A stretch of 64,000 nucleotides of DNA from Raillietiella orientalis (Eukaryota). Numbering within the stretch: the stretch's first letter is position 1; each line of letters starts with the position of its first letter. Below are positions 30,297 through 59,467 of this stretch, one piece after another. The stretch is from the NCBI GenBank assembly GCA_036172245.1, contig JAYWIR010000011.1, positions 4,402,001 through 4,466,000 on the forward strand, in the 5' to 3' direction. A program made the position numbers and the translations under genes. Under the pieces are notes generated by a model, which did not search any database, was not told the DNA's origin, and worked only from the letters and a program-made list of their open reading frames with translations.

Positions 30297-30384
30297 GTCA
30301 GCCAAGTTCAAGTCCTGCGACGAGCTCGACCTCGCAGGCGGCTCCCCTTCGTCCCAGGGGTGCACCCCCCTCCGGGTGACCTGA
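30297..30384 (+). CDS. PDZ scaffold gene, last coding exon (SAKFKSCDELD..LRVT*)
   Basis: Phase-2 intron 30242-30296 (GTACGT..TTCCAG); TGA 30382-30384. The 5-exon model totals 1437 nt = 478 aa plus stop. Confidence 0.8.
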
Positions 30385-30619: not shown

Positions 30620-33346
30620 GTTCTTCCCCCCTCGCTCGTGTCCACCCCCGGTCGGGGAAGAGGGGAAAAGGGTAACCGTGGGAGGGGGCGAGACTGTGTT
30701 GCTCGGAGACCGCTGGACCGGGGCGGCGGCCGCCTGCGCCTGGGCGTCTACTCCCGAACTCCCGTTCCTCTCCGACAGGCAAGGGACGGTTCTGACACAA
30801 CCAGGCCCGGCAGCCCCAGGAGGGACGCGGGAGGTGGGTGAAAAAGGGAAGAGAAAGGACGGGCACGCGGGCTGACCGGGGACCTTCCATCTCCGCCTAC
30901 GGCATCTCCGCCGCTCCCCCCCCTTCTTCCTCCCCTATGCGCCGCCGGGCAGCCGACGACTGCTCTGCGAACTGCCCCGGAGGTGGCAAATTCCCTCCCC
31001 CTTTCCCCTCAGGAGGGGAAAAAAAAAAAAAAAACGCGCACAAAAAAAATCCAAGGGACAAAATGAAGGGGGAAAAAAAAAAGAAAAAAAAAAGTGCGTG
31101 CGCGCGCGCGTGAGTGCAGGGAAAACGCCCGAACGGCGACAAAAAAAAAAAACAACCGCAAGACGTGCGGAGCGGCGCGCGCGTTTTTGTCTTCCGGCGA
31201 AGAGGAAGCGGCCAATTAGGGGGCGCGTAGCTGTGTCGGGGTGCACCGGATGATGGGGGGGGGGAGTTTCCAGCCGCACAGGTGGCTCCTCGTCGCCTCC
31301 TGCGCGGAGTTGAAACCCGCTGGCACTCGCGGGAGAGGCGCAGCTGGTGCCGCCGGATCGCCTGCCAGAGGCCGGGGCAGGGTTGCCAGGTTCGCTTTCT
31401 CTCCGACGGCCTTCGGATCGAGTCTGGCGGGACTGTCGACGCCCCTGCCTCCTCCCCTGACCGCACGCACGCGCCCCGGCGTCCCGCTCCCGACCCGCTC
31501 GGCTTCCCGCGCGCAACCCCTGGCCTTCCCGTGGCGTGACCGCGGCGCACTTTCCCTCGGCCGGGCATCCCGCACTCGTCGGGGTGGGGCATCGCCGTGG
31601 CCGAGCTGACAGCTGACGCTTGGGGGGGAGGGGAGGGGCTTCCCCTCGGGACGAAGCGACGCCGTCTTCGACTTCCGCCTTGCTGCCGCCGCAGAGGGGG
31701 GTAAGGTTGACATTAGATCGCCCAAGCCAGCGACGCCCGCGCTGGTTCCTTCCTTTCCTCCTTTTTCGACTCCCCACCCTTCAGGGGGTAACGAAGAGGC
31801 CGGCGGCTCACCCGCACACACACACACACACCCCCTGTCTACCCAATCCCCGGTCACCAGCAGCTGTTCCCTTTCCAGACGGATCCGGCACTCCTTCGTC
31901 TCAAATTCCCGTCACTCCCTCCCATGCGGCAGGCGGCCGTCGAAAACAACTGGTTTACATGGCAACGCGAACGGAGGGGGCAAAAACAGCAAGCAGGCGC
32001 CGCCGTGCGGAATCGAACGCGCGCGGCGGTCCTCCTCGTCTTGCGTGACACCGTCCACGCACTCATCGCTGCGCGGCAATCTCACTCGGCGGCGGGCCAC
32101 TCCCTCGCAGCCTTTGCAAGATATGCGTGACTGTCCAGGAAGGGACCCTCCTGCAGCTGCAGACTGCTCCCTCCCCCTGATCCTCCTCCTCTTTCAGAGA
32201 TTCTGCAGGTCCCCTGAGGAGAAAGGAGGGGGACGGGATTCCCCCCCGCCCCGTCGTCCCCTTCGAAGTCCCCTCTCCACCCCCCACCTTCTCGTCTCCC
32301 ATGCTCGTGATGGGCATCGTAACCCCATGGTACGCACCGTGGGGCTGCGTAGGGGAACCCCTGCTCCCAGAAAGCTCCAGCCGGCGTTGCCGTCGCAGTC
32401 ACCTGCTTCGCCACCCCAGTCCTGGATCGTCGTTGCGTGGGAACTCCTTGCCAGGCTGGCGCCGGGTTCCAGACGGTATCGGAAACCTCCGGCGTCCCCG
32501 AGACGAGGGTTGCGGGTTCGAACCTCAGCGGCGTCGGGGACGGCACCCGTCCGGGAGCTCTCCCATTCGAAGAGAAACGCAGCATGCGCGGCGCCTGCGG
32601 AGCCTCGGACGAATGCCGCAGGCAGCCTGTGACCCATCCAGGGCGGATCCCGGTCCGACGAGCTGGCGAGGGGGACAACCCCAGCCAATCACACGTCGCC
32701 CCTCGTCACCGACGTCGGGAGTGCAGCCTTTCACCGCGGCGCACCCCTCGCACCCGGAGGTGCGTGCGCCAGGGAGGGGGGGAGTCGAAGGCGTCGCCGG
32801 CTTCCTGGGTCGTCGGTGCAGTTCCAGGAAGGAACCTCACCGCGGCTCCGGACGCTGCCGTCCTCCTCCTCGATTCAGGGCGTTTCCTGCCGCAGCTTCT
32901 TGCGCGCCCTTGAGAATTTCGGTCACCACCTCTTCTCCCTCCAGGGCATCGTGAGTCGGGAGTGACTCTGCCTTCCCCTCCGCTCTCCGAAATCCACTCG
33001 CTGCTGTTCTTGGTAGGTTCGTTTCTTGCGGCCTTCCTTCCTTCCTCCGTTTGCTTTCGTTTTGGTCCTTGCTGCGGGAGCAGTTCATGGATAAAGAGGG
33101 ATGTGGCAGGAGGCGCACCCGGGTACGCTTCCCTCTTCTTCGCATGCCCTCCTTCCCCGGGGGTTTCGGCCTCTGCTGAGAGTCCGGCCGCTTGCCCTGC
33201 CACCCTCCTCCAGTCAGGGACAAGAAGGGTCCGACCGGTGAGGACGAGGAGCTCTCCCCCAGGCTGGACTCAACTCGTCGCGCGGGTCACCCGGCTGGGG
33301 ACCAACCCTGGGCCTGGAGCGCTTGAACGCAGGGCTTCGACGCGAC

Positions 33347-35015
33347 CCGCGTTGGCGGCTGCGGCTGTCTCGAGTGGCACCGGGCGTCGCGGGTTCGAAT
33401 CCCGCCCGAGGAAAAGGTTGACGCCGAGAACGGATTGACAGCCGGTCACCCCGGGACGTTTGTTTATTAAAAAATGAAACTTGGACGTCAGTAGCAGGAT
33501 GCGTGATCCTGCCACGTTATATGGATATGCGACAGGAACCTGCCGGGAACCGGCGCGCAGGCCGGCGAGGTTCGCCTCGGCAGCAAAGGGGAAGGAGAGG
33601 AGGCAAACAAAAAGAAAAAAAAATTAAAGAAAAAACATACAGTCGAAAAAAAAGGGGAGTGGGTAGGTTCGGGAAGGGATCATTGTGTGCTGGAGGACGT
33701 CTTCTACATCCTCGTAAGGATGTTGGCAAGTTTCTGTTTCGACACTTCCAAACGGGGCCATGTTGACGCTGTCCTCATGAAGAGGACAGCAGAATAGATG
33801 AAGCCCTTGTCGTCCTGACCTTCTCTGGCGCTGCTGCTCCATTCATCCACGGTCCCGCCCCGTGGGCAGCAAAGTGCTGCTGGGGATGCGACCTGCGTGA
33901 GGGCGTCGCGTAGGAAGAGGTTCTTCAAAACGTCTCTGGAGTTGCCCTCGGGGATATGAGGCAAAGCGTTCCCACATGAGCAGGTGCGGGAGCGACCCCC
34001 TCTAACCGCACCTGCCGCAGTTCGAGCTCACATTCCCCCGGGTCCAATGATGTCGGCGGGTGCTGCACGGGAGGCCCCAATGCAATATCAGGGTCGCCGT
34101 TTCCTGCCACTTCAAGGAGAGGGCACTGTTCCAGCATGCTGGGGACCACTGCATCTCCTCCAGAGGAATTTCTAATAGCTCTCCCCAGCGTGGCAGTCCT
34201 TTTGGTGGGACACTCGGGGTCACAGCGTCCGCCAGCTCCCGAGTTGGCCACGCACCCAGATGTTGTTTCCTTCTCCCTATCACGCAGGTCACTTCCCACC
34301 GGGGAAAAGGTCGACGCCGAGAACGGGGGGTGCCTCGTGGGTTTCGAGTTCCTACTTTGCAGGATGACGCTATTTGGCCTACGGGCTTCGGGTGCGGCAC
34401 TGGTGGAAGCAGCCGGAAACCGGATACCCTCGTTGACTGGCCTCCGGCACTGGACGTTGACCCTCCGTGGTCCTTCCAGGAATCGAGGTGCCCTTCGGGG
34501 TTCCTTCCAATTGCGAAAATGGAGCCGTACCATGGAGCTGGTTGATGCCTACACTGTGGGTTGCCTCTCCAGTGTACAGGAAGAGCACTGCTCCTTTGCG
34601 GGAGCGATCCTGCAGAGAAATCGGAAAGAGTCCCTTAGAGGTTCTTTCCAGACTAGGAAACAGGGAGTGGTTCCTTTGCGGTGCCCCCCGGAGAAGAAAT
34701 TCCAGAAGCGCATGCTTTCCGGGTTCCCTTTCCGGGAGAAGAAAATAAGGAGTGATCCCACTCCCCCCCTCACCGGGGATCCCTCCAGAGAGAACAAAGA
34801 AGAGATTCCCTTGAGGGTTCCCTCCCAAGAGTGGGAAGAATGCTATCCTTCCTCCAGAGCCTTCCTGGAATTTATAGGGTGGTCCCTACGGGGCGAGCCC
34901 CCACCAACTTGAAGAGTTGCGCGCACCCTTGACTCACCTCAAAGAGCGTCAAAGAGCTCCGTGAGCCCCCTAAGGGGGAGGGCGGTTCTTCAGCACCCGA
35001 CGAATCGAAAGCAGC
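33347..35015 (+). mobile_element. tRNA-derived SINE-like repeat, copy S3 (33347-33433 and 34303-35015), interrupted by a LINE fragment
   Basis: Head CCGCGTTGGCGGC..GTCGCGGGTTCGAATCCCGCCC; the body resumes after the duplicated 24-mer at 34303-34326 and is collinear with S1, S2 and S4. Confidence 0.75.
33434..34302 (-). mobile_element. 5'-truncated non-LTR retrotransposon, copy 2, flanked by a 24-bp TSD
   Basis: Translation ..PPKGLPRWGELLEIP..LHWGLPCSTRRHHWTRGNVSSNCGRCG..HLL..NSRDVLKNLFLRDAL..FMRTASTWPRL; 3'UTR with AATAAA, ending ..GTGACCGGCTGTCAA; TSD 33410-33433 / 34303-34326. Confidence 0.85.
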
Positions 35016-38000
35016 TTGGACACTTCCGCGCTCGAGTGTGCACCGCGTTGTACTTGGTCCGAGCGGCCTGTTGAGCATCCTTGTGGTCATCCTTGCGGGC
35101 TCAAGCGAGGCCGTGCACTGCATCTCCTTGTCCGGCGCGCTTCCCGCTTTCGGTCTGCGCCATCATCGGAATCCCTGCAGGCCGTGTCTTCAGCGATTCG
35201 GTCCGTGGTCCTCGGGTTCGCTTGCGGATCTTCCGTCTGCTGAGTCGCCGACGCGGCCGGCTGATTCGACCACGGTCGTTCGGGCTTCTTGGAATGTTTG
35301 TGGCTGGATGCTGCCCGTTCTCCTTGCAGGCCTCTTGCTTTCCGGCCGGAAATGGCACACCCCCTCCGGAGTCGTTCCTCGAGGGAGCGTCCCACCGGCG
35401 CAGGCTTCTTTTCCTGGCCCACCGTGGCGTCGTTCTCCCGCATGCACCCCGTCCAGTGGTCGCCTTTCTCGCTCAGGCTGTGCGTCGTCCCATCCAGTGA
35501 TTGAGCCTGCTCTGCTGTCCCATTGGTTTGGTGCCCTGGTCTTGCTTCTTTCTTCTCCACCCTTTCCTCCTGGGGATTTCCGTGCCCCCGCGGTCGCGCG
35601 CTCTCCTCCGGCAGACAAGTTCCTTCTCCTATCCTTCCTTGGTTCTTGCTGCACCTCCACCGTCTTGATGGCTTTCCCTGCAGCCTCCTCGCGCCTCGCC
35701 ATCTTGAAAAGGCAGCAGCACCCTCCCCGCAGCTGCGAGCGGCGCCCCTAGTCGCACTTGTAGTTTTACGTCTGGGAGCGGGCTGCCGCCTGACCTGAAC
35801 GTCACTTCCTGCACGCGTCAGCGTTCGCAGCACCTGGAACGGCAGCGATGCTGTGCAGCTTGTCTTCCGTAGAACACTGAAGCGAGGAATCTCCACATCT
35901 ATACGTGCTGCTCCTCCGCATGTTCGGTGGAAAGCGCCCGATTGCCTGTGGGTCGTGCAATAGCTGACCCCGCTCAGCAACGCCGTCGTGGTCTCGCAGC
36001 CAGCTTCCCGCTTTCTCCAGGTCCGACAGGATGGTGGATGAAGCTGCTCTCCTGCTTCCCAGATCTCAGCGAGTGACCATCCAGGATAGTGGATGTCCAA
36101 GCGTCCTGCAGTGGGCCCCTCGGTGAGAAGGGTGAAGGAAGGGACGAATGCCCCTGCAGCGTGAGAGGCGACCTCGCGGGGCTACCAAAGGAAAGGCCTC
36201 GGCCGGCCAAAGAAACCACGCCATCAGGGTCCGCAAAGGTGGGCGGAGCTCCTCGGCATCCCCCGACTGGGGATCAGGGTCATTCAACTTCCCGGCCCCG
36301 GGACCCTCCGTAACCCGCAGACCGCCGTATCGCTGTCGCACCTGCTGGCCCGCGAGGACTGTCTCCATGCAGGACGTGGAAGATCGGATCGGCCTCCGAG
36401 GCGCCTCTTGTCCCCGCTGCTGCCCCGCGGGACTGCCTTGAGGTCACCTCTGCCGACTCGCAGACCGCCTCTTCCGCGAGCGGTGGCTGCCAAAGTGAAG
36501 GACGAGGCTGGCGGGCAGTGGTCCCATCGTCCCGGGAAGCCGCCTGCCATCGCCATCGCCCGCGTGCAGGCAACGAGGCGGCTGGCGCAGCCCGGGGTGG
36601 GAGGCGCAGGGGGGCTGGGGGCGGACTGAACGCATCCTCCCCCCCCCACCTCGTGTCCCCTTCCACCTTTTAGGCGATGACCCTCGGGAGCTGCGTTCGG
36701 CACGGTGAGGCTGGAGCATCCCCTCATTCCCGATTCATTTTTGGGTCCTCCCCTCCTCCCTTTCCTTCCTCCTTACATCTGTCCCCAGCGAGGGTAGCCA
36801 CACGGACTGAAGCATGTCGGCCCTTCTCCAGCCGTATTTGCTTTGACATATTTACTATAAATAAATGACCCGGCTGTCCGACAAGGATTCGGGTGACTTT
36901 CATTCTCCGAGGGACGACTACACAGCATGCACACCCACCGGCCTTCTTGACGTCCACACTTGAGGCTTGCACCCCGGTTTTTGCGTCACAACAATCTCCG
37001 TTCGAGATCGCCTCACTCGCCTAGGGAGGGGTGGCAGTAGGATCGCCCCTGAGCACCCATCTGGCCACCCTCACTCTTCGGAGGGTGCACTCTGAACGTC
37101 CAGGCCGGCGCCTTTCCCCAGCCGCTGATCCCGATCTCCCTCTGCGGTTTATCCGGAGGGCATCGGCTCCCTCCCTTTTCACTGATCAGGGGGGGCAGGC
37201 AGTTTCTTGCTTTCAGATTGTACTTTCCCACCATCATTGCCAGCGCCTCGACTCGACGCTCTTCGGTGCTGTTTGCGACTAGACATTCTTCATCCCGAAT
37301 CTGCAACGTCTGGACCGCGCTCGTTTCCCCTTTCCCCAGCTTTTCCTTTGGTGCCTGCGCGACGTGAAGATTTCGTGTAGGCGACATCAGGCTGACTGCC
37401 TCTACTTCCTGTGGTCCATACTCGTGGCGTTCGTAGGCGGGGGCGCACGTTCGATAAACTCATAATCAATTAAAGAAACGCACGTGTCCGGTGCGTTCCA
37501 CGTGGGAGCATCTGCTTCCCCACTGAATCAATTAGAACGTTGCTATGATTGAGCGCAGTCACCTAAACCACGGCGGAACGATCTTCCGAATCCCTCGCCG
37601 CTGAGCCTACCTCCATCTACCGTCCGTTCGTCGCACCAATATTTCGAAATGCAGAATCGGTGCGGCGACTGTGCCTGTGTTGCATCTCGCCGCCTCGCGT
37701 CTTCTGCATGGTTGGAACCGCCTCCTGGGGCTGGACGCGCCCTGCCCCCCAATGAGAGAAGAGTAGAAGAAGAGGGACCTTCTTCCTTCTGAAAGGCCGG
37801 GAAGCATGCGACCCGAGCGGGATGCAGAGACCCCGCCAACCCTCGTACGCGACCGTAGCCACGTGGAGACCATGCCCAACGCCCATTGGAGCGCCTCCGG
37901 CGAACGGAGCCTAAGCTGCAGCAGCGCAAGCAGACGCTGATGCTGACTGCCTCCCCTTATGCAGGGTCGACCTCGGCTGCTCCCTTCGCTGGGCCCGAAT

Positions 38001-41000
38001 TCCCCCCGTTCACTCCAGCACTTGCGTTCGTTTCCCCCTCTTTCCGGACTGGCGGGCAGGGAAGAACGCGACTGAAAGGAGCCCCCCTTCCCCCTTGACG
38101 CGTGCGCGCTTGCGGCGTTCGCGGAAGGACTATGGAAACCTGCAAACAGCAGTCGGGTGGCGGCCGCTCGCTGCTCCCCCGACGCACGCGCGCACACTCT
38201 TCGCAGGGCGCAGGGCCCCTCCCTTGCTGCCGCGGCTCCTGGCTGCGGAAGAGACCCTCCGCGACAGTGGCGCCTACCCTCCAGGGTGGACCTGCCACCA
38301 CTCCGAGCGGGGCGCGCCCTCCCACGCCCGCGCACACCGTCGGAGACTGGCATGGCACGCGGCAGCCACCTCCCTCCGAGGGGGAGCGGCCGCCACGCTC
38401 TCCCTCCTCTCCAGGAGCGAGGGGATCGCGTGCGTGCGCGCACTCACGCGAGCGTGACTCACGCACGTGCCCTACCCCGCCTCTTCCCCCTCCCCGCCGG
38501 GGCGCCGCCGTTTGCCTCTGCGGATGCACCAGTTTCCCACGGGGCCGATCCCTGCCGCCGACTCCCGACGACAAGAGCCGGTAGGACCCCCCACCGACTT
38601 CGGGAGGTGAGGGGTCTTGGGATGGGCGGGACGAACCCCTCGCCTCCCTCCTCCGCCACTGCTTTCGCGCCCTCCCCTCACCCGCGTCCGGCAAGACCCC
38701 GCAGCTTCACTAAGGGGGGAGGCAAAGGCGACCCTTCCCGAGGCGATGAGGGCCTGCAGATGGCGCGCCGCATCGCCACCGCTTGACTGGTTCCTGGTTC
38801 AGGCGGACGGGGAAAGTCCGGGCGGTCTCAGTGCGCAGCGACCTCTCGAGAGTGAGAATACCGCGGTGTGAGGAGGAGGGCGTACACCGTGCGAGAAAGG
38901 GGGTGCGCGGCAAGGAAGGGCGCCTGCGGCTGAGGAGAGGGCGAGTCCCTCCGCACGCAGCCTTCGGTGCCTTTCCTCGAGGACCGGGGCACCTCGGGAA
39001 GGCCGGAGGGACTTCGGGAACGGAAAGGCAGCTGCGGTCGTCCTCGGCCCTCCCCCGGGTACGTGCCCTGAAGCGTCCACCTCCTGCTCCTCCTGGTCTC
39101 TCTGAAAGCGGGTTTTTTGCTTCCCCCGCTCACCGCCAGGAGGGCAAGGGAATGCGCCTAACGGGCGCTCCGAGACGCCCATCCGCCGCACGCTCACCTT
39201 GTTCCGAGAAGGGAGCGGGAGGAGCGCGGCTGCTGCTCTCAGAGGGGGAAGGGGAGTGCAGCAGCACTCTCCTCCCCCTTGGACGGCGCAGGTTGGCGCG
39301 GCGCTTTCACGTGAGCCGCAGCGTTCCCTCCGCCACCTCCGCCCACAAGAGCCTCCCGTGCGCGCCTGGCGGCTGTGCACCTACGATGACCTCAGGAAGA
39401 GATCATCTGCTCCCGCGGTGACCGCCGCGGTGACCTCTCCGTCGTCGTCGTCGTCCCCTTTCCCTCTCTTCGCCTTTCCCTGGAGCCAGGGCCCCAGGTA
39501 ACCCCGATGGGGGTCACCCTCGGCCTGCTCTCGGCCCGGCAACGTTCAGGCCAAAATAAAAGCGGCCACGAAGACCCGCGAGCTCGCATCCCGTCCCGTT
39601 CCTGACCGTTCTCCGACAACTTCCGAGAGTGGTCACCGGATCCTGGTCTTCCAAGAGAAGCACGAAAGGGAAGACACTGGAAACGGTGACCCCTTTCGTC
39701 CGTGCAGAGGAACTGTGATAGCCCCTCTCTCTGGAACGTTCTTCACTCCGTTCGGGAGCGGGCGCGATCCCGAGTGCACTCCCCGTGGTCGGTGCTTCCC
39801 TGCTCCAGCTTCCCGGGCTGCAAGGGGCGCGCGGTCCGGCATGTGGGGGGAGAGGAAGGGGAGGAATCCAGGTGTCCCCACTTCGGATGGCGCGCGGTCC
39901 AGCTGGAGAGAACAGGAGTTTCCATTCTTCCCGGTTCCCGAAGGGATCCCTCCCTTCTCCCGCAGTGCCGAGGCAGAGGTGGGGGAACCTTCGGCCGTCT
40001 GAGGTCCGGGAGGAGGACATCCCGAGACCCTACGACGGTCCACCTCCCTCGAACGCCACGCCAAGCATCTTCGCAGCTGCTCCTGGAGCTACGCCAGCTC
40101 TCGTCCTCCACCCCTTCTCTCCCCTCCCTCCTCCTTCCCTCCATGGAGTCATCGCCAACCATCTGCCGGCTCTCCCCCCATCCAGCCGCGTCCTCCCCTT
40201 TTCCAGACTCCCTTTGTCCCACCTCCCTTCTCGCCAGCTGCTCCCGAATGGCGTCCCCTTCCACGGGAATCCCCTAGGAGCCTTCCCGACGGCACGGGGA
40301 CTCCGCCTCCCTCCAGAGTAGCTGCGCACCACGTGGGACGCTCCTGGAATCCGGGAGCTGCGCTGCCTCGGCATCATCAGGGGATCTGAGTCGCCAGGGA
40401 AACGAGCACTCCGCGCCGGAACCCCTGTCTACCGCAGGCAGAGGTGGAGGGCGATGCGCCTCCCTATCTTGCGTAACCCCTTGCCCTCCAGGGGATAAGG
40501 AGGAGGCTCTGTTTTCCAGGACGCTTGCTCCCCCGTCTCCTAGGTGACGGGGGAGCAGCCTCAGCATGGTGCTTGTCCTGGAAGCGGGGAGTAGCCGGCC
40601 TGCGGGAGACAAACGGTAGGCGGGCGGGGCTCACGAGCGCCGGGCGTGGTCGGGCAGGCGTTGCGCGTTCGTGGAGGTGGAGGTGATGGAAGGGGGAGGG
40701 GTCGCGATCACTATGCAGGATAAGACCCTGGGAACGGATGCGGAAGCTTCCTCCCCTCCCCCCTCCCGTCCGACCACTCCTCGCTGCCTCGAGTCCCGCG
40801 GCATCCGCAGGGCAGGTCGCGCATCGCCCTCCTCCCGATTCGCGGGCCGGAAGCCCACTCTCCATGAGACTAGGGAGCTACAGAGCTTTTTCGAACGAAG
40901 ACGCACGCCTGGAGGAGTGCAGGGAGCGGCGCCGCGTCCCCTGAAGGTGCGGTTCGCCGCCGTGGGACAGAGCTGCTCTTCGGCTGTCCCTCCGTGAGGT

Positions 41001-42899
41001 TTTCTCTTCCCCTACCCCCACCACCATCGTTTTCCTGGCCTTCCTTCCGGGGATGGACTCTCTCGAGTCCCGGCGAGAGTCCCGGCCAAACGAGGGGCCG
41101 ACGAAAAGGAACGGCGGAAAACCGAAGGAACTTGCGGGCGCCGCGGGGGAGTCCCCATGGTGCGGGAGAGGGGGCGGCGGGGGAGGTGGGAAATGGAGCG
41201 AGGCGGGCAGACCTTTTCTTCGAGCCCTCTCCTCCGGGATACTGCAGCGGGGATGATACAACAGCTCTCTCGCTCCGAGAGGCGGTGCCGGCGGCGGCGG
41301 CACTGTTCTGCAGGAGGGGAAGAAGCAATGCGTCATCCGACCGCGCCCGCCATCGTCGCGGAGAACGCGACGCCCCCTGGACCCCTCCCTCGCTGTCGCT
41401 CGGAATGCTCTTTGGAGTTCCACGGAGAAAGACTTGCATCTTCCGTTCGTCCACCTCCATTTTGCCGTTTCGTTTGCTTTGGTGCCGCCCTTCCCCTTCC
41501 CCTCTTCTTCTCTCTCTCCCTCTTCCTCCTCCTTTCTTCTTCCTCCCTTCCATCTACACTTCCACCTCTCCCCCCTCCCCTTTTTTGGAGGGCTCATGGA
41601 TGTCTCCGACTGCCTTCCGGTCACCCTGGCCGCAGTGACCCGCTGCAGACTCGCGGTTTGGAAGACCCCGTGGCCGTTCAGTCGAATGCGCGCCATCCTC
41701 GCTGCAGGAAAGCTAAGGGAGTAGCCGTCCTCTTCGATAGTGACTCTGACAACGCGCCCTCGACGTAAGCAGCATCCGGGGAAGGAACCTCCAGTGAGCC
41801 AGGTCCCTTTTTGTCCCTCTTTCACGAGAGGGGAGGTCTAACAAGGGGACCAGAATCCTTCCCTCTCGGCTCCTAGCTCCTATCCGTCCGTCTAATCCAT
41901 GGCGACGCTGTCAGGAGGGAGCACACTCCCCCCCCCCTCCTTTCCATCCGCTGACGTAGCCGCCTCCAAAGGATGCGTCTCTTGGCTCGCTGAAGTTCCA
42001 GGCTCTCGAGGAGCCAACTTGACCTTCCTCCCGACGGAGGAGAGGGGGGCGAACATAGCGGGGCGCCTCCTCTTCCGTCTGTGTGGCGTCCACCTCCGTT
42101 CCGCTTTTCCCGCAAGCGCTCCCCCAACGCGCCAGGGCAGTGCATCCGTGAGTCCACGGGGATTCGCGTCGGCGAGGATGCTGCCAACGACCGGGCGCTG
42201 CCTTCTCGTCGAATGCCAGGCGCCAGTGGTCATATGCCCTTCGCCCAGCATCTCGGCGTCACCCGGGCCGCAACGATCATCGGCCCAGAGCCCTCCGACA
42301 AATCGCTCCCCGGCCTGGTCTCGTCCGAGAAAGCGGGAACCTCGTCGGGGAGGCGGGAGCTGCCTCAGCGCGTGCTGGTGGCTGTCTGCCGGCCCTGCGG
42401 GAAGGAGTTCCTCCTGAAGGACGCACCGCGCGTTCCGCTTGGCAGGTCGCTCCCTGAGGCTGCCGCACGGGAGGCTCGGAGGTCTGCTTGCAGCGCGCCG
42501 GATCCCCTCGTGAGCCCCTTCCTCCTCCTCTGGACCGGAGGTTTCCAATTACGCCTCCAGATCGTCCTCCCCGAGACCGGGGGAACGGGAACGCGTTCCG
42601 CCGCTGCCTCCCCGCTAACCGGAAGGCGCTCCGCGACGATGCGCTTTCGCGCCGCCGTGGAAACGCCCGATGCGGGGGAAGCTGTTCGCCTCCCCCCCTC
42701 CCTTCCCCCTCCTCGCGGCACGGAGACGTCCCACCCTCCCATCTTCTGCGGCGCGCGCGCTTCCCGGCAAGGCGTCTGCAGCAGCCAGGAAGGGCCTGCG
42801 GCAACTCGGGGACCTTCCTTGGGGGAAAGATCCACTGAGCAGGAACGGCACTCACCCGCTCCAGATGACGAAAGTCTCTCCGCAAGGAGGTCGGCGGCT

Positions 42900-43290
42900 T
42901 CGGGGGACCGCGTCCGATCGACGAATGCGCTCTCGGGGCCCTCCCCTTGACCCCATCAATCCGACTTCGAGCTCTCCCTGCGGCTGAGACCAAGCGCTGC
43001 ACCCTGAGGGGCCGGCAAGATACAGCCCGTGTTCATGTTCCTCTTCTTCCCTTCCTCCTTTTTCCTCCTCCCCCTCCTTATTCCCCTTCTCTTTCTCTTC
43101 TCCTCTTCTCCTTCCTTTCCTCCTTCCTCCTCCAATCCTCAGAAGCCCAGCGACTCCGGGGGACCGCGTCCGATCGGTGATTGCGTTCTCCGCGTCCTCC
43201 CTCGCGACCCATCAATCCGACTCCGAGCTCGCCCTGCGGCTGAGACGAGGTGCTGCACCCTGAGGGACCGGAACGACGCAGCCCGCGTTC
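42900..43290 (+). repeat. Two diverged direct copies (about 42900-43035 and 43157-43290) of a roughly 130-bp unit, separated by a pyrimidine-rich simple repeat; related to the family C 3' end
   Basis: Both read CGGGGGACCGCGTCCGATCG..CCCATCAATCCGACTYCGAGCTCKCCCTGCGGCTGAGAC..GCTGCACCCTGAGGG.CCGG. Confidence 0.8.
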
Positions 43291-44145
43291 GGGTGCGACG
43301 GAAAGCTCAGGAAGTGGACGCCCGCTCGGAGCTAGAGGCGCCTGAAGTCCCGGAGCTCGAACAGCCGCCTGGCCACGTGTGCACCCAGCGGAAGCGCTCT
43401 GCCTCCATCCCCCTCAGGCCGTCTATTTACGTCCCAGCCAGGGGGCGTCCCCTTCTGCCCAAACATCAACAGCTCCTGAAAACATAGCATCTCTCCCATT
43501 TCCTCCCGAGTGTCGTGCCTCCCGAATCTTAAAATTACCTTCCAGACCTGGGAAAAACGAAAAGGGAAACATCGTTTCCCAGTTTCCTGCCCTCCACTCA
43601 GTGATGGCTGCCAAAATTGGAAGCGCGTCCCCCGGAAAGCTGTCCTCCGGTTGACTCGTTCCTCTCCCTTGACTCACCCTTCCAATCGCAGAAAGGAAGG
43701 GGGTGGTTGGTCCGGGAAGACCAGGGAGCCCCTGATGCCGCATCTTCGGTGGGGCAGACCGAGAAGGGATGCCGCAATTCTAGTGGTCCCATCCCCTTTA
43801 CCCCTGATGCCGCTCGCCGGGAGGAAGCAAATCCGAAGTGCCCTGCGACGGTTCTACCCCGAGGAGAGCTGTGACCTGCCGATGGCAACCTCGTCCAGAC
43901 AACAGTTGGAACAGGATGTAGGACTCCTGGCCTACTCAGAGCTAGGGAATCCTCTTGAAACCCCCCCGTGATGCAGCCATCAGTCCGCGGTCATTCAGGG
44001 CGATGCAGGGCGTGACTCGGCTGCAACAGATGGAGGAACACCCTACCCATCTCCTCAGATCCTCCGGAGGACTCCCGAGGATGACCCAAAGAGGAAGAAG
44101 AAGGGGTAGGAGGAAAACCATGCTCGCAAAAGAAGAGGTGTTGGT

Positions 44146-44968
44146 CCGCGTTGGCGGCAGCGAGGTTGCGGCGGCCTCCGCGCGCGCGGCACCACCGAAC
44201 GTTGCGGATTCGAATCCCGCCCAGAGGAGGAAGCGTTGACTTCGAGGACACAGGATGCGTCGTCGTGGGTTTCGAATGCCCTCCGGCAGAATGGCGCTGG
44301 TTGACATCTGGTGGCTTCGGATGCGGCGGAATTGGTAGGAGTCCGACGCTCCCGTTGACTGGCCGGGATTGGAATTCGGCCCTCCGGAGTCCTTCCAGGA
44401 CATCAAAGAGCCCTTCAAGGTTTCCCTTCGTTCGGAAAAGGGAGCCATCTCCCCTCCCCTCTGAGGGGAACCCTCTTTCTAGTGCCATGGAGCCGGTTTG
44501 ACGTCCCCCTCGGGAAGTTACCCCTCCAGAGCGTTAATAAGCGCGACGCTGCCTTTGGGGAGTGACTCTTTAGGGTTCTCTTCAGAGGAGGAAGAAACCA
44601 GGAGCGGATCCTTTCTGGGGATCTCTCAGGAGAAGAAAATGAGGAGTGACCCCACCCCCTCGGAAGGTTCCTCCGGAGAGAATGAGGGTGAGACTCTCTT
44701 CGGGGCTCCCTTCCAAAAGTAAGGAGAAAGGACTCCTTCCTTCAGAGCCTTCTTGGATTCATAGGGTGGTCTCCTCTCGGGGCACCCTCTAAATTGAGGA
44801 GTCACACGCTCAATTTAGAGGTGACGGGCGTGGGTAGCGTGGACAGTGTCAAAGAGCTACGTGAAGCCCTAGGAGAACGCTTCTTGAGTACTGAACGAAC
44901 CAAAAAAAGAAAAGCTGAAAGGAAAGCAGCGAAACTGAAGAATCCAGAAGGCTTTCCGTCATCCGAGG
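44146..44968 (+). mobile_element. tRNA-derived SINE-like repeat, copy S4 (uninterrupted, most complete)
   Basis: CCGCGTTGGCGGCAGCGAGG..CCGAACGTTGCGGATTCGAATCCCGCCC head; full body; tail ..GGAAAGCAGCGAAACTGAAGAATCC..TTCCGTCATCC shared with S5; a T5 run follows at about 45000. Confidence 0.75.
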
Positions 44969-47900
44969 TCAGTAACGATCTTCCCATAGCTACTGGACTT
45001 TTTGGGGGGGGGGGAGCGGCCACTAAAAGGAGCTCAAAGAAACGAAGGTGCAAGTTGAGCTACAGGCCATAAGCAAAATCAGCAATGAAACCGCACGAGG
45101 TCCTCTCATCACGACCACTGATCCAGTCGATGCATCCCGCATAAGTCGTGAGATGATCGGATGCTGGGATGTACCGTCTTCCAGAGATCCGTCCTCTTGG
45201 TACCGAAGGTTCTTCAGCTCTTGGCCTGGCCTTCCTGGGATTGAGAGACCTCCATCGCCACGACTGACGGCAAAATGCCCTCCTCCCCCACCCCTCGTTC
45301 GTCCATTCTTCCTCCTGTCCCGAGATTTCCCATCATCGCTTCCTCGTCTCCTTGGGGAGAGAAAAGACCAGGACCCCTTGGCGAGCCGAATCCCACGCGA
45401 GTCCACACTCCACGGTCATCCATACGTCCCCTGGACGTCTTGGCCCGCTCCCTCCGCCTCTGGAGACAGGTCAGGAGGTTCCGATCGAGGGGGAATGCAG
45501 TCTGGCTGCATGCGTTCGTCGGTAAGGGGGGCGCAGGCGAATGACGAAGGCGGTCTCCTCCTCATTCTTCCTCCTCCCGCATTCATCTCTCTTGTTCCTC
45601 CTCTCTGCTTCCTCCTCCTCCTTTCCTCTTCCTCTTCCTCCTTCTTTTCAACCTGTATTCTCTCTCTTCCATGCTTGTTGCAAGGTCCCCCACCCTCCCT
45701 GCTCCATCCCGGCGCTGCAGTTGTCGCAGCGCTGCTCGTCACGACCCGCGATCCAGCCCATGCATCCAGAACACGTCGCGGGATCGTCGGCCGCGCCGTC
45801 TCCTCTTCAACTCTTCCGGAACCTCCGCGAAATCCGTCAGCGACGAGCGCTCTCCTTGGGAAGATGGGGAAGGGGAAGGGGGGGGGGAGGTCCGGCGCTC
45901 GATGCTTCCCCCTCTTCCACGCGTCTTTTGGAGGTGTCTCTGAGGTCAGGTGTGATACACCTATGGCTGGTGTGGTCGGACATCCACCTCAGTGGCAATC
46001 GATCAGGGGGAGAGGGAAGGGAGACGAGTCATCACTCGTCCTTCTCCCGGGAGCATCAACGGGGGTGGGAGCTTCGAGACGACTCCAGACTTCGGCTTAT
46101 TGTCGACCACTAGTTCTCGGTGCTTCTTTGAAGGTTCGGGAGTAGGGCTGGGAAGGTTCCCTTGCTTGTTTCTGGTATCGAAACGTGCGACGCCGTCTAC
46201 GTGTCCAAGAGATGCGCGAGGCACGAGCTCCACCGGATGCTCTCCAGGAATCAGGCGCCGTCTGGCAGTCCCCAGGGAAGGTCAGCGCTTTCGGAAGACG
46301 AGGGTCCAATATCTAGAAGGCGTCTTGCTGTCGCTTTGCTGGGAATATGGAAGGTCGGAGACCTTTGACGAGGAGTTGTTTTCCAGAAACGACCCCGGGG
46401 ACTTACTTCTCTGCCTCCTTTCCATTCCTGCTTATCTGCGATAAGCCATGAAAGACGGGAAAGCAGACTCCGGGTCTCCACATCCGGGTCTCCGCGGACG
46501 ACGTCTACGAGCCAAAGGTTTACCGTCGCTGACGGTGAACCTTTGGCTCCTCCTGAAGCTGACGGGCTATCTCGTTCTCCTTCGAGAATCTCTGCCAGGA
46601 GTCACCCGCTGGAAATGAGGAACAGCAACCTTGCGGCGCCATAGGAACCCGGGCGAGGACGACGAACGCTCTTTCTTTGCTTCGGAGGCTGGAACTCTGC
46701 CCTTCTTCCTAAATGGACATTTCCTGTTGCCTGCTTTCCGCCTGTGGCTCTCAAGCGCTTCCGCGGTCTCGAAGACCTCTTCTCCACGCCTTCTTTGACG
46801 AGCTGCTCTCAACTGCCGATTCGCCCCCTCCTGCCAGCTCTTTCCCCTTCGAGGGAAGAAGGCCGTTTCCTCTCCTCGGTCGAACGGTCATCCGTGAACC
46901 CCCGGAGTCAAGCAGCTTTCCCTCCGTGAGCATCCGACCTTTACGTGATCGTCCAATTTTCTCCTTTCTCTCCCGGTTTCGGCACATCGCAGCACCGCCT
47001 TCCACGCAGCACGCGGTCTTCCCAAACTCATCGTTCAATCCTCGAGGCCCTCCTGACCGTATCCCTGATTTCGACTCTCTCCCCAAAGGCTTCCTCGAAA
47101 GTCTCAAAAGGTTGCCCCGAGGTCATCCCTCTCTCCCGAACCTTTCCTTTCCGGAGGGGCTCTTCCTACCTTTGTTCACTTCGGAAAGAAGGAAAGGAGG
47201 AATCCTTTGTCCCCAGTCCACCCCCACTCAGAGGCGGGCGACCTGGCTCCCCGAATCGGTTCAGAGCAGAATCCTCCTCTTCAGCCCAGGTATTGGACCT
47301 GGAAGGTGATGATCCGCAACGATTTAGAGAGCTCCAGGCGCCTCGAAGATCTGCAGAGGGTTGCTGAAAGCCGCGAGATGCGCAGCTGACGCGCGTCGCC
47401 TCAAAGGCGAAAGCACGTCCTTGGATGCTGGCGTGGTTTCCCTTGCGAGAAGGCCCTTGCGCCCAGGAAGCTTCGTCCCAGCAAGGCGGGAGTGTTCGCC
47501 TCTGTGAGATGCTCCTCCTGCGAAACATCGGCTGATATGGGGTCCCCTCGGCAACCGCTTTACCAGCGCGCGAGCTTCCGCGTGTCTTCTCCCCATCGCC
47601 TGGTACCTTCTGCGCATTCCTATTCATTCGAAGAAGGGCCCAGGGAGCTCCGCCCGGTAAGATTTCCGAATAGCAGCAGCAGCGGCGACGACGGCGGAGG
47701 GGACGAGGGAGGGGGAGAATGCCTTGACGGATCTGATCGTGCAGATGGAAGAATGGCAAAGAGAAGCGTCAGTGAGAGAGCAGTCGCCTACGTGCTGCGA
47801 CCCTTCCCGTGAGGGAAGGAACGACAACGAGGCAGAACCACTCGCGGCCACCGCCGGTTCGGACGAAGCAGTCCATGCGCTGCTGAGACTTCAGGCAACC

Positions 47901-49224
47901 AACCGCTGGAATGGAATGAGAAGGAATGGAAGAGCGTTCAGCAAGAGCGTCAACCTTCCCTCCTCCTCCTCCTTGCCTTCTCCTCCCTTCCTCTTCTTCC
48001 TCTCTTCCTCCTCCTTGCCTTCTCCTCCTCTTCCTTACCCTCTACCCCTCCTTCTCCATACCTCCTCCTCCTTCTTTGCAACCTGTATCCAACCTTTCAA
48101 GGTTGTATTCGTCCGGCATCTACAAATTATGTTCCAGGGTCCACGTGTTAGGAGGATGATCGATCGCAGAGCAGTAATCTGCTATCTGTTAAGGCTTAAG
48201 GCCTGTTCGAGGCGGGGGAAAAAAATCCGACCCTCTTCAGATACTGTGATTTTTCATCCCTGAAACGGCACGAGAGAACAACAGGAGAGGCTCCACATTA
48301 GAAGGCATCCAATCTGCGCCGACACGCGGATCGATATAGCGGTCGCAACGATGGAAGGGTACGGAGCACTTCGCCAGAGGTCATCACTTTAGCGGGAGAT
48401 TCATTAATTAATTGCCGAGTCACTAATAATTTCCGTGGGCGACGTCGTCGACAACATAAATCACCGCGAGGCTTCGGAGATTCTTGAAAGCGAGGCACTG
48501 GATCTCGGCTCTGCGAAAGATTTATCTGCACGAGAGCCTTTCAACTTCGTGAGAGAAACGCTTCACGCAGCTGATTTATTTTTTGCCTCTTCCCCTCCAG
48601 AGGGAACGCTCCGGAAGGCTTCAGTCTTTTCCCTTTTTTGTGTGCCGTGTTCGAGCCGAAGGATTCCTCCACAGGAGCTGGCACGACCCTCCCTCCCCCC
48701 TCCCCCCATGGCATGTACGCGTCCGAAAATCCGATCCGCACATGACGATTTGGAACATCCGATGCCTCGTCATCCGTACGGCTGGAGATGGTCCGAATTT
48801 GGATTTCGGTCCTCGAAGAAGAAAAGAGAAACAAGAAAGCATCCGCCGCTCTTCCACCCCCCTTCCCCTCCCTTCCCGCCCCCAGGCATAACGATGCTAA
48901 TAGAAGGATGACTGCTAATAAGATGGGTGATCTCTCGAGAGGTCAGAGTGGCACGAGAATCTCCGCGCACCTTGCTCATTACATCCCACATCAACCGGCT
49001 CAACCTCTCCCCCCTCCTTTCCCCTCTCCTTCAGCGGGATGAGCGACTCCTCCTAGGGTTCGCTTCCAGTCCACTGGCGCAACCTCGCCTGGATTCGACG
49101 CCCCGGAATCTCTGACCAAGCTGTGGGCGCGCGTGTGTGGCGATGTCAGATCGAGTTCCGCGATTTCCATCGTCATGCAGTCTCCGGAAGCTGCACCGAG
49201 AACGGACTGGACAGAAGGAGCAGA

Positions 49225-50410
49225 GCCGCGCGCACGGCACCGAACGTCGCGGGTTCGAATCCCACCCGCGGGAAGGATCGATGCCGAGAAAGGAGAGCCC
49301 TGTAGGGTGACGCAGGTCGGCCCATGAGCTTCGGGTGCGGCACTGGTTGACATCCGGTCACGCCTGGGCATTTATTTATAAAATAAACACAGACAACTGT
49401 AGCAGGACGTTTGATCCTGTCCCGTTACTTATGAATACGAGAGAAACCTGCCGGGATCTGGCACGCAGGCCAGAGGGGTTCGCCTCGGCAGCACAAGAAA
49501 AGGGAGGCAAACAAAAAAGAAAAATAAAGCAAAAAATACGTACAAAAAATGGGAAGGGGGGTTCGGGAAGGGATCACCGGGTGTTGGCGGGCGTCCTCTG
49601 CACCCTTTGCAGGATGCCGGCAAGTTCCTGTTTCGAGGCTCCCAGATGGGGCCATCTTGACGCGGTCCTCATGAAGAGGACAGCAAAATAGATGGCGTCC
49701 CTGTCGTTCTGGCCTCCTCTGTCATTGCTGCTCCATGCAGTCACCGTCCCGCCCCGTGGGCAACAAAGTGCTGCTAGGGATGCGGCCGGCGTGAGGGCGT
49801 GGCGCAGGAATTCAGTCGCTTCAAAACGTCTCTGGGGTTGCCCTCGGGGATATGCGGCAAAGCGTGTGAACATGGGGTGCAGGGCAACAGACTCCATAAG
49901 CAGGTGCGGGAGGGATTCTCGCTCCCCTCACCTTGCATAGTTCGGATCGTTCCCCTTCCCCCGCGTCCAATGATGCCGGCGGGCGTTGCACGGGAGGCCC
50001 CAGTGCAGTGGCACTGGTGGAAGCCGGATGTCCCCTCGCTGACAGAACGAGGTCGGAAGATGACCCTCCAGCATCTTTCCAGGACATCAACGAGCGTCGT
50101 TTCCCTTTAGGATTTCCTCTGTAGACAGCCAGGGAGAGGGTTCGCCTCCCAAGCGTGGGAGGAACGGACTCCTCCCTCCGGAGCCTTCCTGGATCCATAG
50201 GGTGGTCCCTCCCCGGGTGCCCTTTAACTTAAAGAGTCACACGCGTCCTCGAGTGGCGCGAACGGTGCTGCAGGAGCTTCCTTAGCTCCCCGCAAGGAGG
50301 CAAAGGGTTCTTTGAGCACTTCAGCGAACCAAAGAAAACCGGAAGAAAAAAAAAAAAATGGAAGGAAAGCAGCGTAAACTGGAGAACCCCCAAAGATTTC
50401 CATCATCAGA
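49225..50410 (+). mobile_element. tRNA-derived SINE-like repeat, copy S5 (49225-49347 and 50010-50410), interrupted by a LINE fragment and internally deleted
   Basis: GGCACCGAACGTCGCGGGTTCGAATCCCACC head; body resumes after the duplicated GGCACTGGT; tail is homologous to S4. Confidence 0.7.
49348..50009 (-). mobile_element. 5'-truncated non-LTR retrotransposon, copy 3, flanked by an 8-9 bp TSD
   Basis: Collinear with copy 2 (LHWGLPC..HHWTRG..HLL..AALCCPRGGTV..FMRTASRWPHLGASKQELAGILQRVQ); end ..AATAAATGCCCAGGCGTGACCGGATGTCAA; TSD GGCACTGG(T) at 49339-49347 / 50010-50018. Confidence 0.85.
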
Positions 50411-51433
50411 GATGCGACCTCCGAAGCCAGGCGAACTGCGCTGCCTGGCTCCAGGAGTGGGTCTTCGCCTGTGGGAAGATTCACGGCACGAACGAGGCGT
50501 GGTGCGGCTGCCTGCATCCAGGCATCGACGCTCGCAAGTCATCGGAGGTCGTCCGCAGCCCGCAGAAGGTGCGGGGGGCCTCATCTACCCTCCTTTCCCC
50601 AGTGCTGTCCTCCCTAAGGGGCGCAAGGGACAGCGTGATCCTGGAAAGATGGGAAGTGAAGAAGAAACCATTGGAGTCGCAGGCAACTCGGGAAGTGACG
50701 GACGCTGCGACCCCGAGTGTCCCACCCAAAAGACTTGTACGCTGGGGAGAGCTGCTGGGCATCCCTCCGAAGGAGGTGAAGCGGCTCTCAGAGTTCCGGA
50801 ACGGTGGAGCTCTCCCTCTCAATTGGCGGGAGTTGGCATTGATGGTGTTTCAAGAGGGAATACCATGCAAAGCGCGCCTTCACCACTGGACACGGGGGTG
50901 AGCGTGGACGCTCAGAACGGGACAGGTGCAGGAAGAAGGAGACCCTCCTGCACCTGCTCTTGGACTGTGCTGCCTTCCGATCCCTTTGGGCGGACCAGGA
51001 GACGATCCTAGGTATCCCGGCGTGCAACCCCAGGGACATTTTCAGGCGCCTCTTCGTGCGCGGCGCCGCACTGCCTCCAACCGCATACCCTGCAGTCCTC
51101 TGCTTTCTCCGCGGGATCACGGAGGCCTGGAACGCCAGGAGAAGAGGGCCGAAATGGCAGGGATCTTCCTGAGGACCACCCCGAGATGGTGCCACCTGGT
51201 TCCTATGTACGGACAGAAATTTCCAGCATCCTGAAGAGGACGCCTGGCAGCGTACCGTACCTCCCCCTCCCCTGTTTTTGTCTGTTTATTTTATTTTATC
51301 CTTTGTTTTCCCCTTCCCCCACGCTGCTGAGGCGGACCTCCCCGCTTCTGCGTGCCGCTCCTCGGCAGGTTCACCGCACCAACGTATTTTTATTGCTCTA
51401 TGTAATAAATGCCCCTGCATAACCGGATGACAA
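50408..51433 (+). mobile_element. 5'-truncated non-LTR retrotransposon, copy 4 (5' boundary uncertain, 50408-50560)
   Basis: ..PPKRLVRWGELLGIP..EGIPCKARLHHWTRG..HLLLDC..NPRDIFRRLFVRGA..RWCHL; 3'UTR GCTGCTGAGGCGGACCTC; end AATAAATGCCCCTGCATAACCGGATGACAA. Confidence 0.8.
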
Positions 51434-52332
51434 TCATCCTGCCTGGGCTCCACTATCCCAGCTCTCCATACTGCTATCCCAGCTTATTACGAGTTTGCAC
51501 TTCCTGGAGACGAACCGAATAATAATCTTTCGGAGCTCCAGACTGTGCGAGTTTTTCGAAGAACCTTCCATGAGGTTCCCCGACCGACCGCGAAGGGCTC
51601 TTCCGGAAGAGACTCCAGATTCGCTCGAGAGCGTCCTGGGTCCACTTGCAGCCTCTCTTTCCGTCTTCCCGGTTCCTTGAGGTAAACAAAAATGTGCGGA
51701 TCTCGGGTTGGGTGGAATCGACACGCAGACGTACGTGAGAAATCAAAGCTGTCGGCACTCCCCCTGTTCCAGGAAGGGAATGCGCAGGAGCCCTCCCGTA
51801 CAGGACAGCTTCAGGAACGAGGAAGCAATCCCTCATTATCTGACATGGTGAACGTGATGCTGGAAAAGTTCCGTCAGGTGTTCTCGTTTGCGCACGTCTG
51901 GGCGGTTGCTGCTATTGAGACATCGATGTATCCATTGCGTCAAAATAAACCGAGCAGTAGGAACAGAACATTCGTGAACAACCGTGCACCGTGTAAAAAA
52001 AAAAAGAAAAACGTGTACACGGTATTTCCAAATTCCGGTCAATCTTACTCATTCATGGTCACATATTTTCCGTTAAAAGGAACCGAAACCATCCCTTACA
52101 AGGTCCTCCCCCCCCCCCCCCCCAATTTATTCACGTTTAATAAGAACAGTAGGAACGTCGAATTTTCGGCTCAGACACGAACACCAAAGGAATGAGGAAA
52201 ACTTCCAACACGTGCGGGCGACACGCATCCGAAACGAAATGGCTCCCGTCCGAGGTTCGTCTTAGGTATCTCCCGTCGCGCGCACGACGCATAGCACATT
52301 CTAATACTGCTGCTGCGAATGAGAGGACGTTC

Positions 52333-52405
52333 GCCTCCTTAGCTCAGTGGTATGAGCACCAGTCTCGTAAACTGGGGGTCGTGAGTTCGATCCTCACAGG
52401 AGGCT
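52333..52405 (+). tRNA. tRNA-Thr (anticodon CGT)
   Basis: Complete cloverleaf: acceptor GCCTCCT/AGGAGGC, D-arm GCTC/GAGC, anticodon arm CCAGT-CTCGTAA-ACTGG, T-arm GTGAG-TTCGATC-CTCAC; TTTT Pol III terminator at 52411-52414. Confidence 0.97.

Positions 52406-59370: not shown

Positions 59371-59467
<97 letters not shown>

Follow-up and report, generated by a model that had tools for sequence, protein, structure and literature searches.

To our knowledge, Pol III-directed integration by non-LTR elements has so far been documented in dictyostelids (social amoebae), and the yeast examples of Pol III-linked integration are LTR elements. In Dictyostelium, TRE3 elements insert 40-150 bp downstream of the B box, with extremes of 14-450 bp, as described in portions of two papers (PMC5911963, PMC5006619). 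A second set of precedents comes from Tx1-clade LINEs that land in other transposons. Passages of one paper (PMC4494074, Kojima 2015) describe Tx1L inserting into Tx1D, the crocodilian Tx1-Mar into Mariner-N4_AMi, Tx1-9_AMi into Harbinger elements and Tx1-8_Crp into LTR elements, and treat a family as target-specific when the target is found in more than 20% of its flanks. A literature search found no case of a LINE that uses a SINE as its landing pad.

Two kinds of retroposon are present as dead copies in the window considered here (the whole 64,000-nt stretch of DNA that was analysed): a SINE-like element and a non-LTR retrotransposon that lacks poly(A). SINE DNA already in place received three LINE fragments, each by a separate event. 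As with the target-specific Tx1 LINEs in the passages cited, a LINE occurs repeatedly within one other repeat family, and insertions can run opposite to the target and occupy more than one preferred region (PMC4494074). Unlike those cases, which are supported by tens to hundreds of flanks and concern DNA or LTR transposons, the present one rests on four flanks and concerns a SINE.

The likeness to TRE3 lies in the variable distance, 31 and 84 nt, at which two of the fragments (c1 and c2) lie past a B box; it does not extend to the other two (c3 and c0). TRE3, as portrayed in the same portions of the literature, integrates in the orientation of the tRNA gene and ends in oligo(A), whereas both c1 and c2 run antisense and lack an A tail. 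The targets of TRE3 are moreover genuine tRNA genes of a compact genome, whereas the insertions described here lie in the body of a SINE and the tRNA-Thr gene of the window is untouched.

A SINE-like family with a fixed 5' end

An nhmmer profile detects five SINE-like copies in the window and no others, every one on the + strand. Two of the five are split.

S1: 19484-20192, + strand, uninterrupted copy (nhmmer E 4.9e-162), exact 13-nt 5' motif at 19484, exact B box at 19533-19543
S2: 22975-23676, + strand, uninterrupted copy (nhmmer E 1.3e-166), 5' motif at 22975, mismatches in the B box, T5 run after the tail
S3, 5' part: 33347-33434, + strand, head with T-arm/B box (nhmmer profile positions 2-100)
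S3, 3' part: 34303-35030, + strand, profile match from 34327 (nhmmer profile positions 66-753)
S4: 44146-44960, probably to 45013, + strand, uninterrupted copy (nhmmer E 2.8e-198, to 44960)
S5, 5' part: 49205-49347, + strand, part with the B box, nhmmer match 49205-49346 (profile positions 8-179)
S5, 3' part: 50010-50453, + strand, nhmmer match 50019-50416 (profile positions 166-251 and 474-753)

The retroposon measures 0.7-0.87 kb, and all five copies have the same fixed 5' end. The same 13-mer opens four of the five, while the flanks upstream of it are mutually unrelated, and this 13-nt 5' block and a tRNA T-arm/B box are the best-conserved blocks of the element. Because the 5' end is fixed, the copies represent a discrete element, and the idea that they are 5'-truncated LINE tails was rejected. 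The SINE tail also has no similarity to the 3' end of the window's LINE. A T5 run follows the tail in two of the five copies. Judged from tail alignments, S4 probably extends to such a run near 45000. The body of S5 carries an internal deletion, and in tail alignments the clear similarity of this copy to the SINE reaches about 50416, with a possible extension to 50453. No convincing target-site duplication (TSD) was found around any of the five copies in the window. Together they occupy 3,560 nt, close to the roughly 3.5 kb of 64 kb given in a preliminary description of this DNA, and this amounts to 5.9% of the 60,525-nt pre-insertion window. The window comes from an animal, probably a pancrustacean, and its GC content is 60-70%.

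The preliminary description had called the SINE tRNA-derived, and on this the features of the head point both ways. The B box is exact in three of the five copies, and the T-arm 17-mer matches tRNA-type models. The head is moreover collinear with, and equal in length to, the sole real tRNA gene in the window:

tRNA-Thr: 52333-52405, real tRNA gene

As a complete unit, the head does not score as a tRNA. ARAGORN and Rfam accept no SINE copy as a tRNA at E up to 1 and find the T-arm alone, and the alignment fold of the SINE consensus is not a cloverleaf, with compensatory change in 0 of 17 pairs. By its sequence features, the SINE head is of Pol III type.

Four poly(A)-less LINE fragments

DNA and protein profiles detect four LINE copies in the window and no more, all of them 5'-truncated 3' fragments that lack poly(A).

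c0: 1-914, + strand, at least 914 nt, 5' end cut by the window edge (nhmmer E 8e-262)
c1: 33435-34298, - strand, about 860 nt, 5'-truncated, no poly(A) (nhmmer E 7e-249)
c2: 49347-50009, - strand, about 660 nt, 5'-truncated, no poly(A) (nhmmer E 3.8e-189)
c3: 50454-51433 (51438 with extra bases), + strand, about 980 nt (nhmmer E 4e-239 from 50574)

The 5' ends differ, and the 3' terminus is common to all four copies. Each ends in the same 12-mer with 0-2 mismatches, the match being perfect in c1 (33435-33446) and c2 (49347-49358), and an AATAAA signal lies about 20-25 nt before this fixed terminus. In the fragments, an open reading frame survives as remnants that include a Cys/His motif, spotted by eye; such a motif is typical of LINE ORF2 tails. 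Identity between c1 and c2 is 78%, and c3 and c0 are 61-65% identical to these two. At 64% identity, c3 is on sequence grounds a different subfamily from c1 and c2. The label of one LINE family, applied earlier, is accordingly loose; c1 and c2 belong to the same subfamily.

Insertion into SINE DNA

The first fragment, c1, splits S3. On one side of the LINE the SINE profile match breaks off at position 100, on the other it resumes at 66, and the insertion is flanked by a 24-nt TSD with one mismatch (23 of 24 identical; 33410-33433 and 34303-34326) whose score was reached in 0 of 1000 shuffles. The LINE is antisense to S3, with its 3' end facing the B box and one extra base (33434) at the junction.

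The second fragment, c2, splits S5, where the profile match runs as far as 179 and starts again at 166. Its TSD is exact and 9 nt long (49339-49347 and 50010-50018); the score of this shorter repeat was reached in 63 of 1000 shuffles, so that the continuity of the SINE is the stronger evidence for the c2 insertion. Base 49347 can be assigned either to the c2 TSD or to the LINE. Like c1 in S3, c2 is antisense to its host. From the positions of the B boxes (33392-33402 in S3, 49252-49262 in S5) and of the LINE 3' termini (33435 and 49347), the nicks of c1 and c2 fall 31 and 84 nt past the B box, in line with the preliminary description, which had both LINEs antisense at about 30 and about 85 nt. 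That account had also placed two fragments inside S3 and S5 and taken them for independent events. The interrupted and resumed profiles and the flanking TSDs bear out the placement, and sites, TSDs and truncation points all differ between the two. On these same differences, the possibility that S3 with c1 and S5 with c2 are duplicates of one event was rejected.

The third fragment, c3, was previously said to abut the tail of S5. It does lie at the 3' terminus of S5 or at most about 25 nt beyond it, and the picture is amended by a sense orientation and a TSD of its own (13/14 nt; 50441-50453 and 51439-51452), whose score was reached in 5 of 1000 shuffles. The LINE ends at 51433 and is followed by five extra bases. 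Formation of a SINE-LINE chimaera by template switching was rejected for c3 because it has its own TSD. In addition to these three LINE 3' ends, which are those listed earlier, there is a fourth, that of c0 at 914. It is not in a SINE, as no SINE profile match occurs in 915-2000. Two of the four LINE 3' ends are therefore in SINE DNA, or three when c3 at the SINE edge is counted.

The anatomy of c1, c2 and c3 is that expected of target-primed reverse transcription. In such a process, a staggered break would give rise to the TSD (24, 9 and 13 nt for c1, c2 and c3, respectively), the complete LINE 3' end would be placed at the first nick, and the 5' ends would be truncated at differing points.

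Chance, tolerance or preference

If insertion were uniform, the binomial probability of at least two of four LINE ends falling inside SINE would be 0.019, and that of at least three of four falling within 50 nt of SINE would be 0.0012, both being nominal, post hoc values for n=4. Both c1 and c2 are antisense in the first 24% of the SINE, for which the nominal joint P is about 1e-4 with a zone chosen after the data were seen. These figures hint at a landing preference of the LINE for the SINE. However, we do not think that the LINE machinery recognises the SINE and that the clustering arose in this way. Such a reading is limited by the lack of a common motif, the two orientations, the 64% lineage to which c3 belongs, the location of c0 outside the SINE and a sample of four assessed post hoc.

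The reading that we favour, with a probability of roughly 0.55, is that these are ordinary nested insertions whose clustering in the SINE is most likely small-sample chance or tolerance. The fragments resemble ordinary nested elements in being TSD-flanked, 5'-truncated copies in older dead repeats, in mixed orientation and at sites with no common motif. They are unlike ordinary nesting in that two or three of the four land in one repeat family that makes up 5.9% of the DNA. Insertions into dead repeats would survive because they are harmless, and this may add to the clustering; tolerance by itself makes a chance outcome more probable only if insertions are barred from a large part of the window.

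A tentative alternative, which we regard as possible and rather doubtful, is regional targeting, in which the c1/c2 lineage, and perhaps its relatives, prefers antisense integration in the promoter-proximal 100 nt or so of the SINE. The integration machinery might be tethered to putative B-box factors or act in open Pol III chromatin, without reading a DNA motif, and the SINE would serve as a safe haven. Both copies of the c1/c2 type (2/2) lie past exact B boxes, in antisense and as independent events, and the nominal P values given above (0.019 and 0.0012) point the same way. Variable distance without a common motif is what tethering predicts, and the TRE3 range of 14 to 450 bp in a portion of PMC5006619 offers a parallel, as do the LINE families documented in passages of PMC4494074 as targeting other transposons. 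In addition, c1 and c2 differ by 22%, as against 1 in 24 positions in the c1 TSD, which suggests two well-separated source elements with the same behaviour.

Regional targeting nevertheless draws on two events in all. The copy c0 lies outside the SINE, and c3 is in sense at the opposite SINE end. No LINE interrupts three of the five SINE copies, among them S1 with its exact B box, and the single genuine tRNA gene has no LINE within 900 nt. The closest precedent is also mismatched in orientation, because TRE3, in the portion of PMC5911963 that deals with it, shares the orientation of the tRNA gene, unlike c1 and c2. The state of the B box follows occupancy to some extent: the B box is exact in the two interrupted copies, and neither copy with a mutated B box carries an insertion (2/3 versus 0/2, not significant).

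If regional targeting were true, this would be the first LINE with a SINE landing pad, a new target type among LINE safe havens, and Pol III-linked integration would have an animal counterpart to the dictyostelid case. It would also bear on SINE inactivation, because the antisense LINE tail brings T runs into the Pol III transcription unit. If instead the preference is not real, what is left is ordinary nested repeat debris, with two apparently uncatalogued repeat families still to its credit.

None of the searches matched either family. In pattern scans for further copies, the LINE 3' block gave 0 matches in metagenome contigs, a looser LINE pattern gave one locus in genome contigs and none in viral contigs, and a two-block SINE pattern gave 30 loci in metagenome contigs. 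With E up to 1e-3 allowed, neither the SINE nor the LINE profile picks up any of these 31 loci, which are thus chance or tRNA-related matches.

Target sites and the type of endonuclease

In SINE profile coordinates, the nicks fall at about 100, at about 179 and at the SINE 3' end, and the target sites of c1, c2 and c3 have no motif in common. Cleavage by a sequence-specific endonuclease of the Tx1 or R1 type that recognises a sequence present in the SINE is very improbable in this light, since the sequences around the three nicks differ, the sites are at least 50-80 nt apart in SINE coordinates, and TSD lengths of 24, 9 and 13 nt accompany them. The idea has some precedent, in that many Tx1 families are specific for a single repeat and sometimes have two preferred sites per target, as passages of PMC4494074 report. 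The protein remnant adds a further point in its favour: 27 of the 30 ESM Atlas clusters nearest to the LINE reading frame are zf-RVT (score 0.90), a weak lead to an L1/Tx1-type C-terminus.

The window itself contributes no reverse transcriptase (RT) or APE sequence to this argument. Pfam searches covered 106 frames of 190 aa or longer and 104 of the 348 frames measuring 90-189 aa, and detected no RT or endonuclease domain in them; the fragments end short of any RT. Homology searches with LINE protein likewise gave 0 matches, whether by phmmer with a 147-aa LINE frame against 1.84 billion representatives, by a word-indexed search of longer proteins, or with a profile of the four LINE C-terminal remnants.

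Two of the three events, c2 and c3, are both in S5 and 1.1 kb apart, and G-rich sequence lies immediately 5' of each of the three nicks. These observations would suit a bias that is independent of SINE identity, such as a local hotspot or a DNA feature that the SINE shares with much other DNA. We consider such a bias unlikely. The c1 insertion occupies a different SINE copy at a distance of 16 kb, the analysis turned up no defined feature, and the whole window is G+C-rich, so that G-rich sites are everywhere.

An annealing model, in which the target resembles the LINE 3' end, was rejected, as the window contains no excess of the terminal 12-mer (55 matches with up to 3 mismatches versus 81.8 expected). 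A one-mismatch match to this 12-mer in S4 (44301-44312) belongs to the SINE's own sequence.

The SINE-like Element

Self-comparison of the window and an nhmmer profile locate exactly five SINE-like copies (S1-S5), all on the plus strand. An identical 13-mer opens four of the five, and their upstream flanking DNA is mutually unrelated, so the element has a fixed 5′ end. This rules out a reading of the copies as truncated LINE tails.

SINE-like copies (nhmmer) and the tRNA gene of the window
19484-20192, plus strand: copy S1
22975-23676, plus strand: copy S2
33347-33434 plus 34327-35030, plus strand: copy S3, in two parts
44146-44960, plus strand: copy S4
49205-49346 plus 50019-50416, plus strand: copy S5, with an internal deletion
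52333-52405: tRNA-Thr(CGU) gene, the only tRNA gene called in the window

About 45 nt farther inward lies a perfect tRNA T-arm with a B box, GGTTCGAATCC, which is exact in S1, S3, and S5; B-box matches in the window number four, versus 1.1 expected. Overall identity among the copies is only 58-65%, whereas the 13-mer and T-arm/B-box blocks are nearly invariant, a pattern to be expected if an internal Pol III promoter was preserved in the source elements. The copies share a tail as far as ∼50416 in S5; this tail probably continues for ∼30 nt to a T5 run present in S2 and S4, and is unrelated to the LINE 3′ end. No convincing target-site duplications (TSDs) flank the copies. The sequence evidence points to a discrete Pol III-type retroposon.

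The preliminary description took this SINE to be tRNA-derived, and a tRNA origin is only partly supported by the sequence. The T-arm and B box stand, as does a head equal in length to, and collinear with, the tRNA-Thr of the window. On the other hand, no copy scores as a tRNA in ARAGORN or Rfam, where only the T-arm does, and the consensus fold of the head contains no cloverleaf.

The fourth B-box match, GGTTCGAACCC at 32514-32524, is on the minus strand, opposite to S3 and ∼800 nt upstream of it, and no tRNA or SINE similarity is called around it. The uniform orientation of the five copies, with odds of 1 in 16 for one given strand, is not shared by the LINE fragments (two plus, two minus) and may reflect a strand bias inside a transcription unit.

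The LINE Fragments

Across the window, profile searches at the DNA and protein level find exactly four LINE copies (c0-c3).

LINE fragments in the window
1-914, plus strand: c0, cut off on its 5′ side by the window boundary
33435-34298, minus strand: c1
49347-50009, minus strand: c2
50454-51433, plus strand: c3

By anatomy these fragments behave as a LINE. All end at the same 3′ terminus, a 12-mer matched with 0-2 mismatches, with AATAAA 20-25 nt before it; they have no poly(A) tail and differ in their 5′ ends. Their translations preserve, in degraded form, a single reading frame bearing a Cys/His motif, of a kind typical of ORF2 C-termini in L1-, Tx1-, and R1-type elements. No reverse transcriptase or endonuclease domain was found in the window, and homology searches with the reading-frame remnants gave no match; zf-RVT appears in 27 of the 30 nearest named ESM Atlas clusters for the frame (score 0.90), a weak lead with low recognition. 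The copies had been described as one family, a view that their identities do not bear out: c1 and c2 are 78% identical, versus 61-65% for c0 and c3 to c1/c2 and to each other, so that the copies form a group of related subfamilies.

An insert in the 3′-UTR of c1 and c2 (33470-33500 and 49385-49415, minus strand) is missing from c0 and c3. It contains a short hairpin-like inverted repeat directly upstream of AATAAA and may be a recognition stem-loop of a stringent-type LINE. At 7579-7732 (minus strand) the T-rich 3′-UTR section of the LINE profile has a weak match (E 2.6e-7), which probably reflects low-complexity sequence and was left out of the copy count.

Nested Insertions

Interrupted SINE profiles confirm, with corrections, the earlier observation that LINE fragments nest in the SINE. 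In S3, the profile stops at position 100 and resumes at 66 after c1, which is flanked by a 24-nt TSD (33410-33433 and 34303-34326, 23/24 identical) whose score is matched by 0 of 1000 shuffles. In S5, it stops at 179 and resumes at 166 after c2. The c2 TSD is 9 nt and exact (49339-49347 and 50010-50018), which is modest alone (63 of 1000 shuffles match), and SINE continuity across c2 is evidence independent of it.

The geometry holds as originally stated. Both fragments are antisense to the SINE with the LINE 3′ end towards the B box, and the first-strand nicks lie 31 nt (c1) and 84 nt (c2) downstream of it. Because sites, TSDs, and truncation points differ, the two are independent events.

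The third fragment, c3, has the same orientation as the SINE and its own TSD (50441-50453 and 51439-51452, 13/14 identical; 5 of 1000 shuffles match). It sits at the SINE 3′ terminus if the tail reaches the T-run position, or otherwise ∼25 nt past the last clearly SINE-like base. The 3′ end of c0 (914) lies in DNA without SINE similarity.

Chance or Preference

The preliminary description proposed regional targeting of a Pol III SINE. Once the LINEs are removed, SINE DNA makes up 3,560 of 60,525 nt (5.9%). With four insertions, a pattern set post hoc, and a null in which all bases are equally open to insertion, the nominal probabilities are 0.019 for at least two of four inside the SINE, 0.0012 for at least three of four within 50 nt of it, and ∼1e-4 for both c1/c2-type copies lying antisense and within 100 nt of the B box. 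These values favor a regional preference of the LINE group for the SINE, as does the behavior of c1 and c2, two antisense insertions that are alike although their source elements are 22% apart. Both also lie in copies with an exact B box; neither of the two copies whose B box is mutated carries a LINE (2/3 versus 0/2, not significant).

However, the nick sites are scattered (profile positions ∼100, ∼179, and the 3′ end), insertions occur in both orientations, c3 belongs to another subfamily, and three of five SINE copies are empty, S1 with its exact B box among them. Nor does any LINE lie within 900 nt of the one real tRNA gene. No evident similarity links the sequences at the three nicks, and the LINE terminal 12-mer shows no enrichment in the window (55 matches versus 82 expected). 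A regional preference is a tentative, rather unlikely reading. A motif-reading endonuclease is highly improbable, and some other local bias is improbable to a lesser degree. Ordinary nested insertion, with the clustering due to coincidence or tolerance, is the preferred reading, at a probability of roughly 0.55. Further copies were sought in metagenome, prokaryotic genome, and viral contigs; none of the 31 loci matches the SINE or LINE profile.

Known Systems

The Tx1 clade includes LINE families whose insertions go into a single other family of transposons, such as Tx1L in Tx1D (PMC4494074). Tx1-Mar enters Mariner-N4_AMi and favors two regions of it, in one case antisense; further Tx1-clade LINEs target Harbinger or LTR elements. 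More than 20% of flanks is the working criterion there for a target-specific family. Dictyostelid TRE3 (PMC5911963 and PMC5006619) integrates downstream of tRNA genes at a distance of 40-150 bp, at either a B box or an external one, in the orientation of the tRNA gene and with an oligo(A) tail. In distance pattern c1 and c2 resemble TRE3, but they differ in orientation and 3′ end. No description of a LINE targeting a SINE was found in full-text searches of open-access literature.

Genes, Composition, and Other Repeats

The window is eukaryotic, animal DNA. Its G+C content is 60-70% across most of its length, and the observed/expected CpG ratio of 0.86-1.05 indicates no CpG depletion throughout. 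An AT-rich island at 56000-60000 (35-41% G+C) carries AT and CT microsatellites.

Protein-coding signal in the window
∼28928-30330, plus strand: exons of a gene encoding a protein with two PDZ domains (Pfam PDZ, E 2.8e-14; tblastn)

This is the only such signal detected. The top local matches of its exons are “PDZ domain-containing protein 2”-like proteins of crustaceans and insects (70-80% identity), which places the source among the animals and probably among the pancrustaceans. The linker joining the two domains is unusually short.

An inverted repeat at 8961-9105 and 9925-10069 (145-nt arms, 97% complementary, 819 nt apart) looks far more recent than the remaining repeats; it could be a foldback element or one with terminal inverted repeats. 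A further dispersed repeat forms an inverted pair at 2194-2403 and 45740-45956 (76% identity). Within 42885-43290 lies a direct duplication of 256 nt (80-83% identity).
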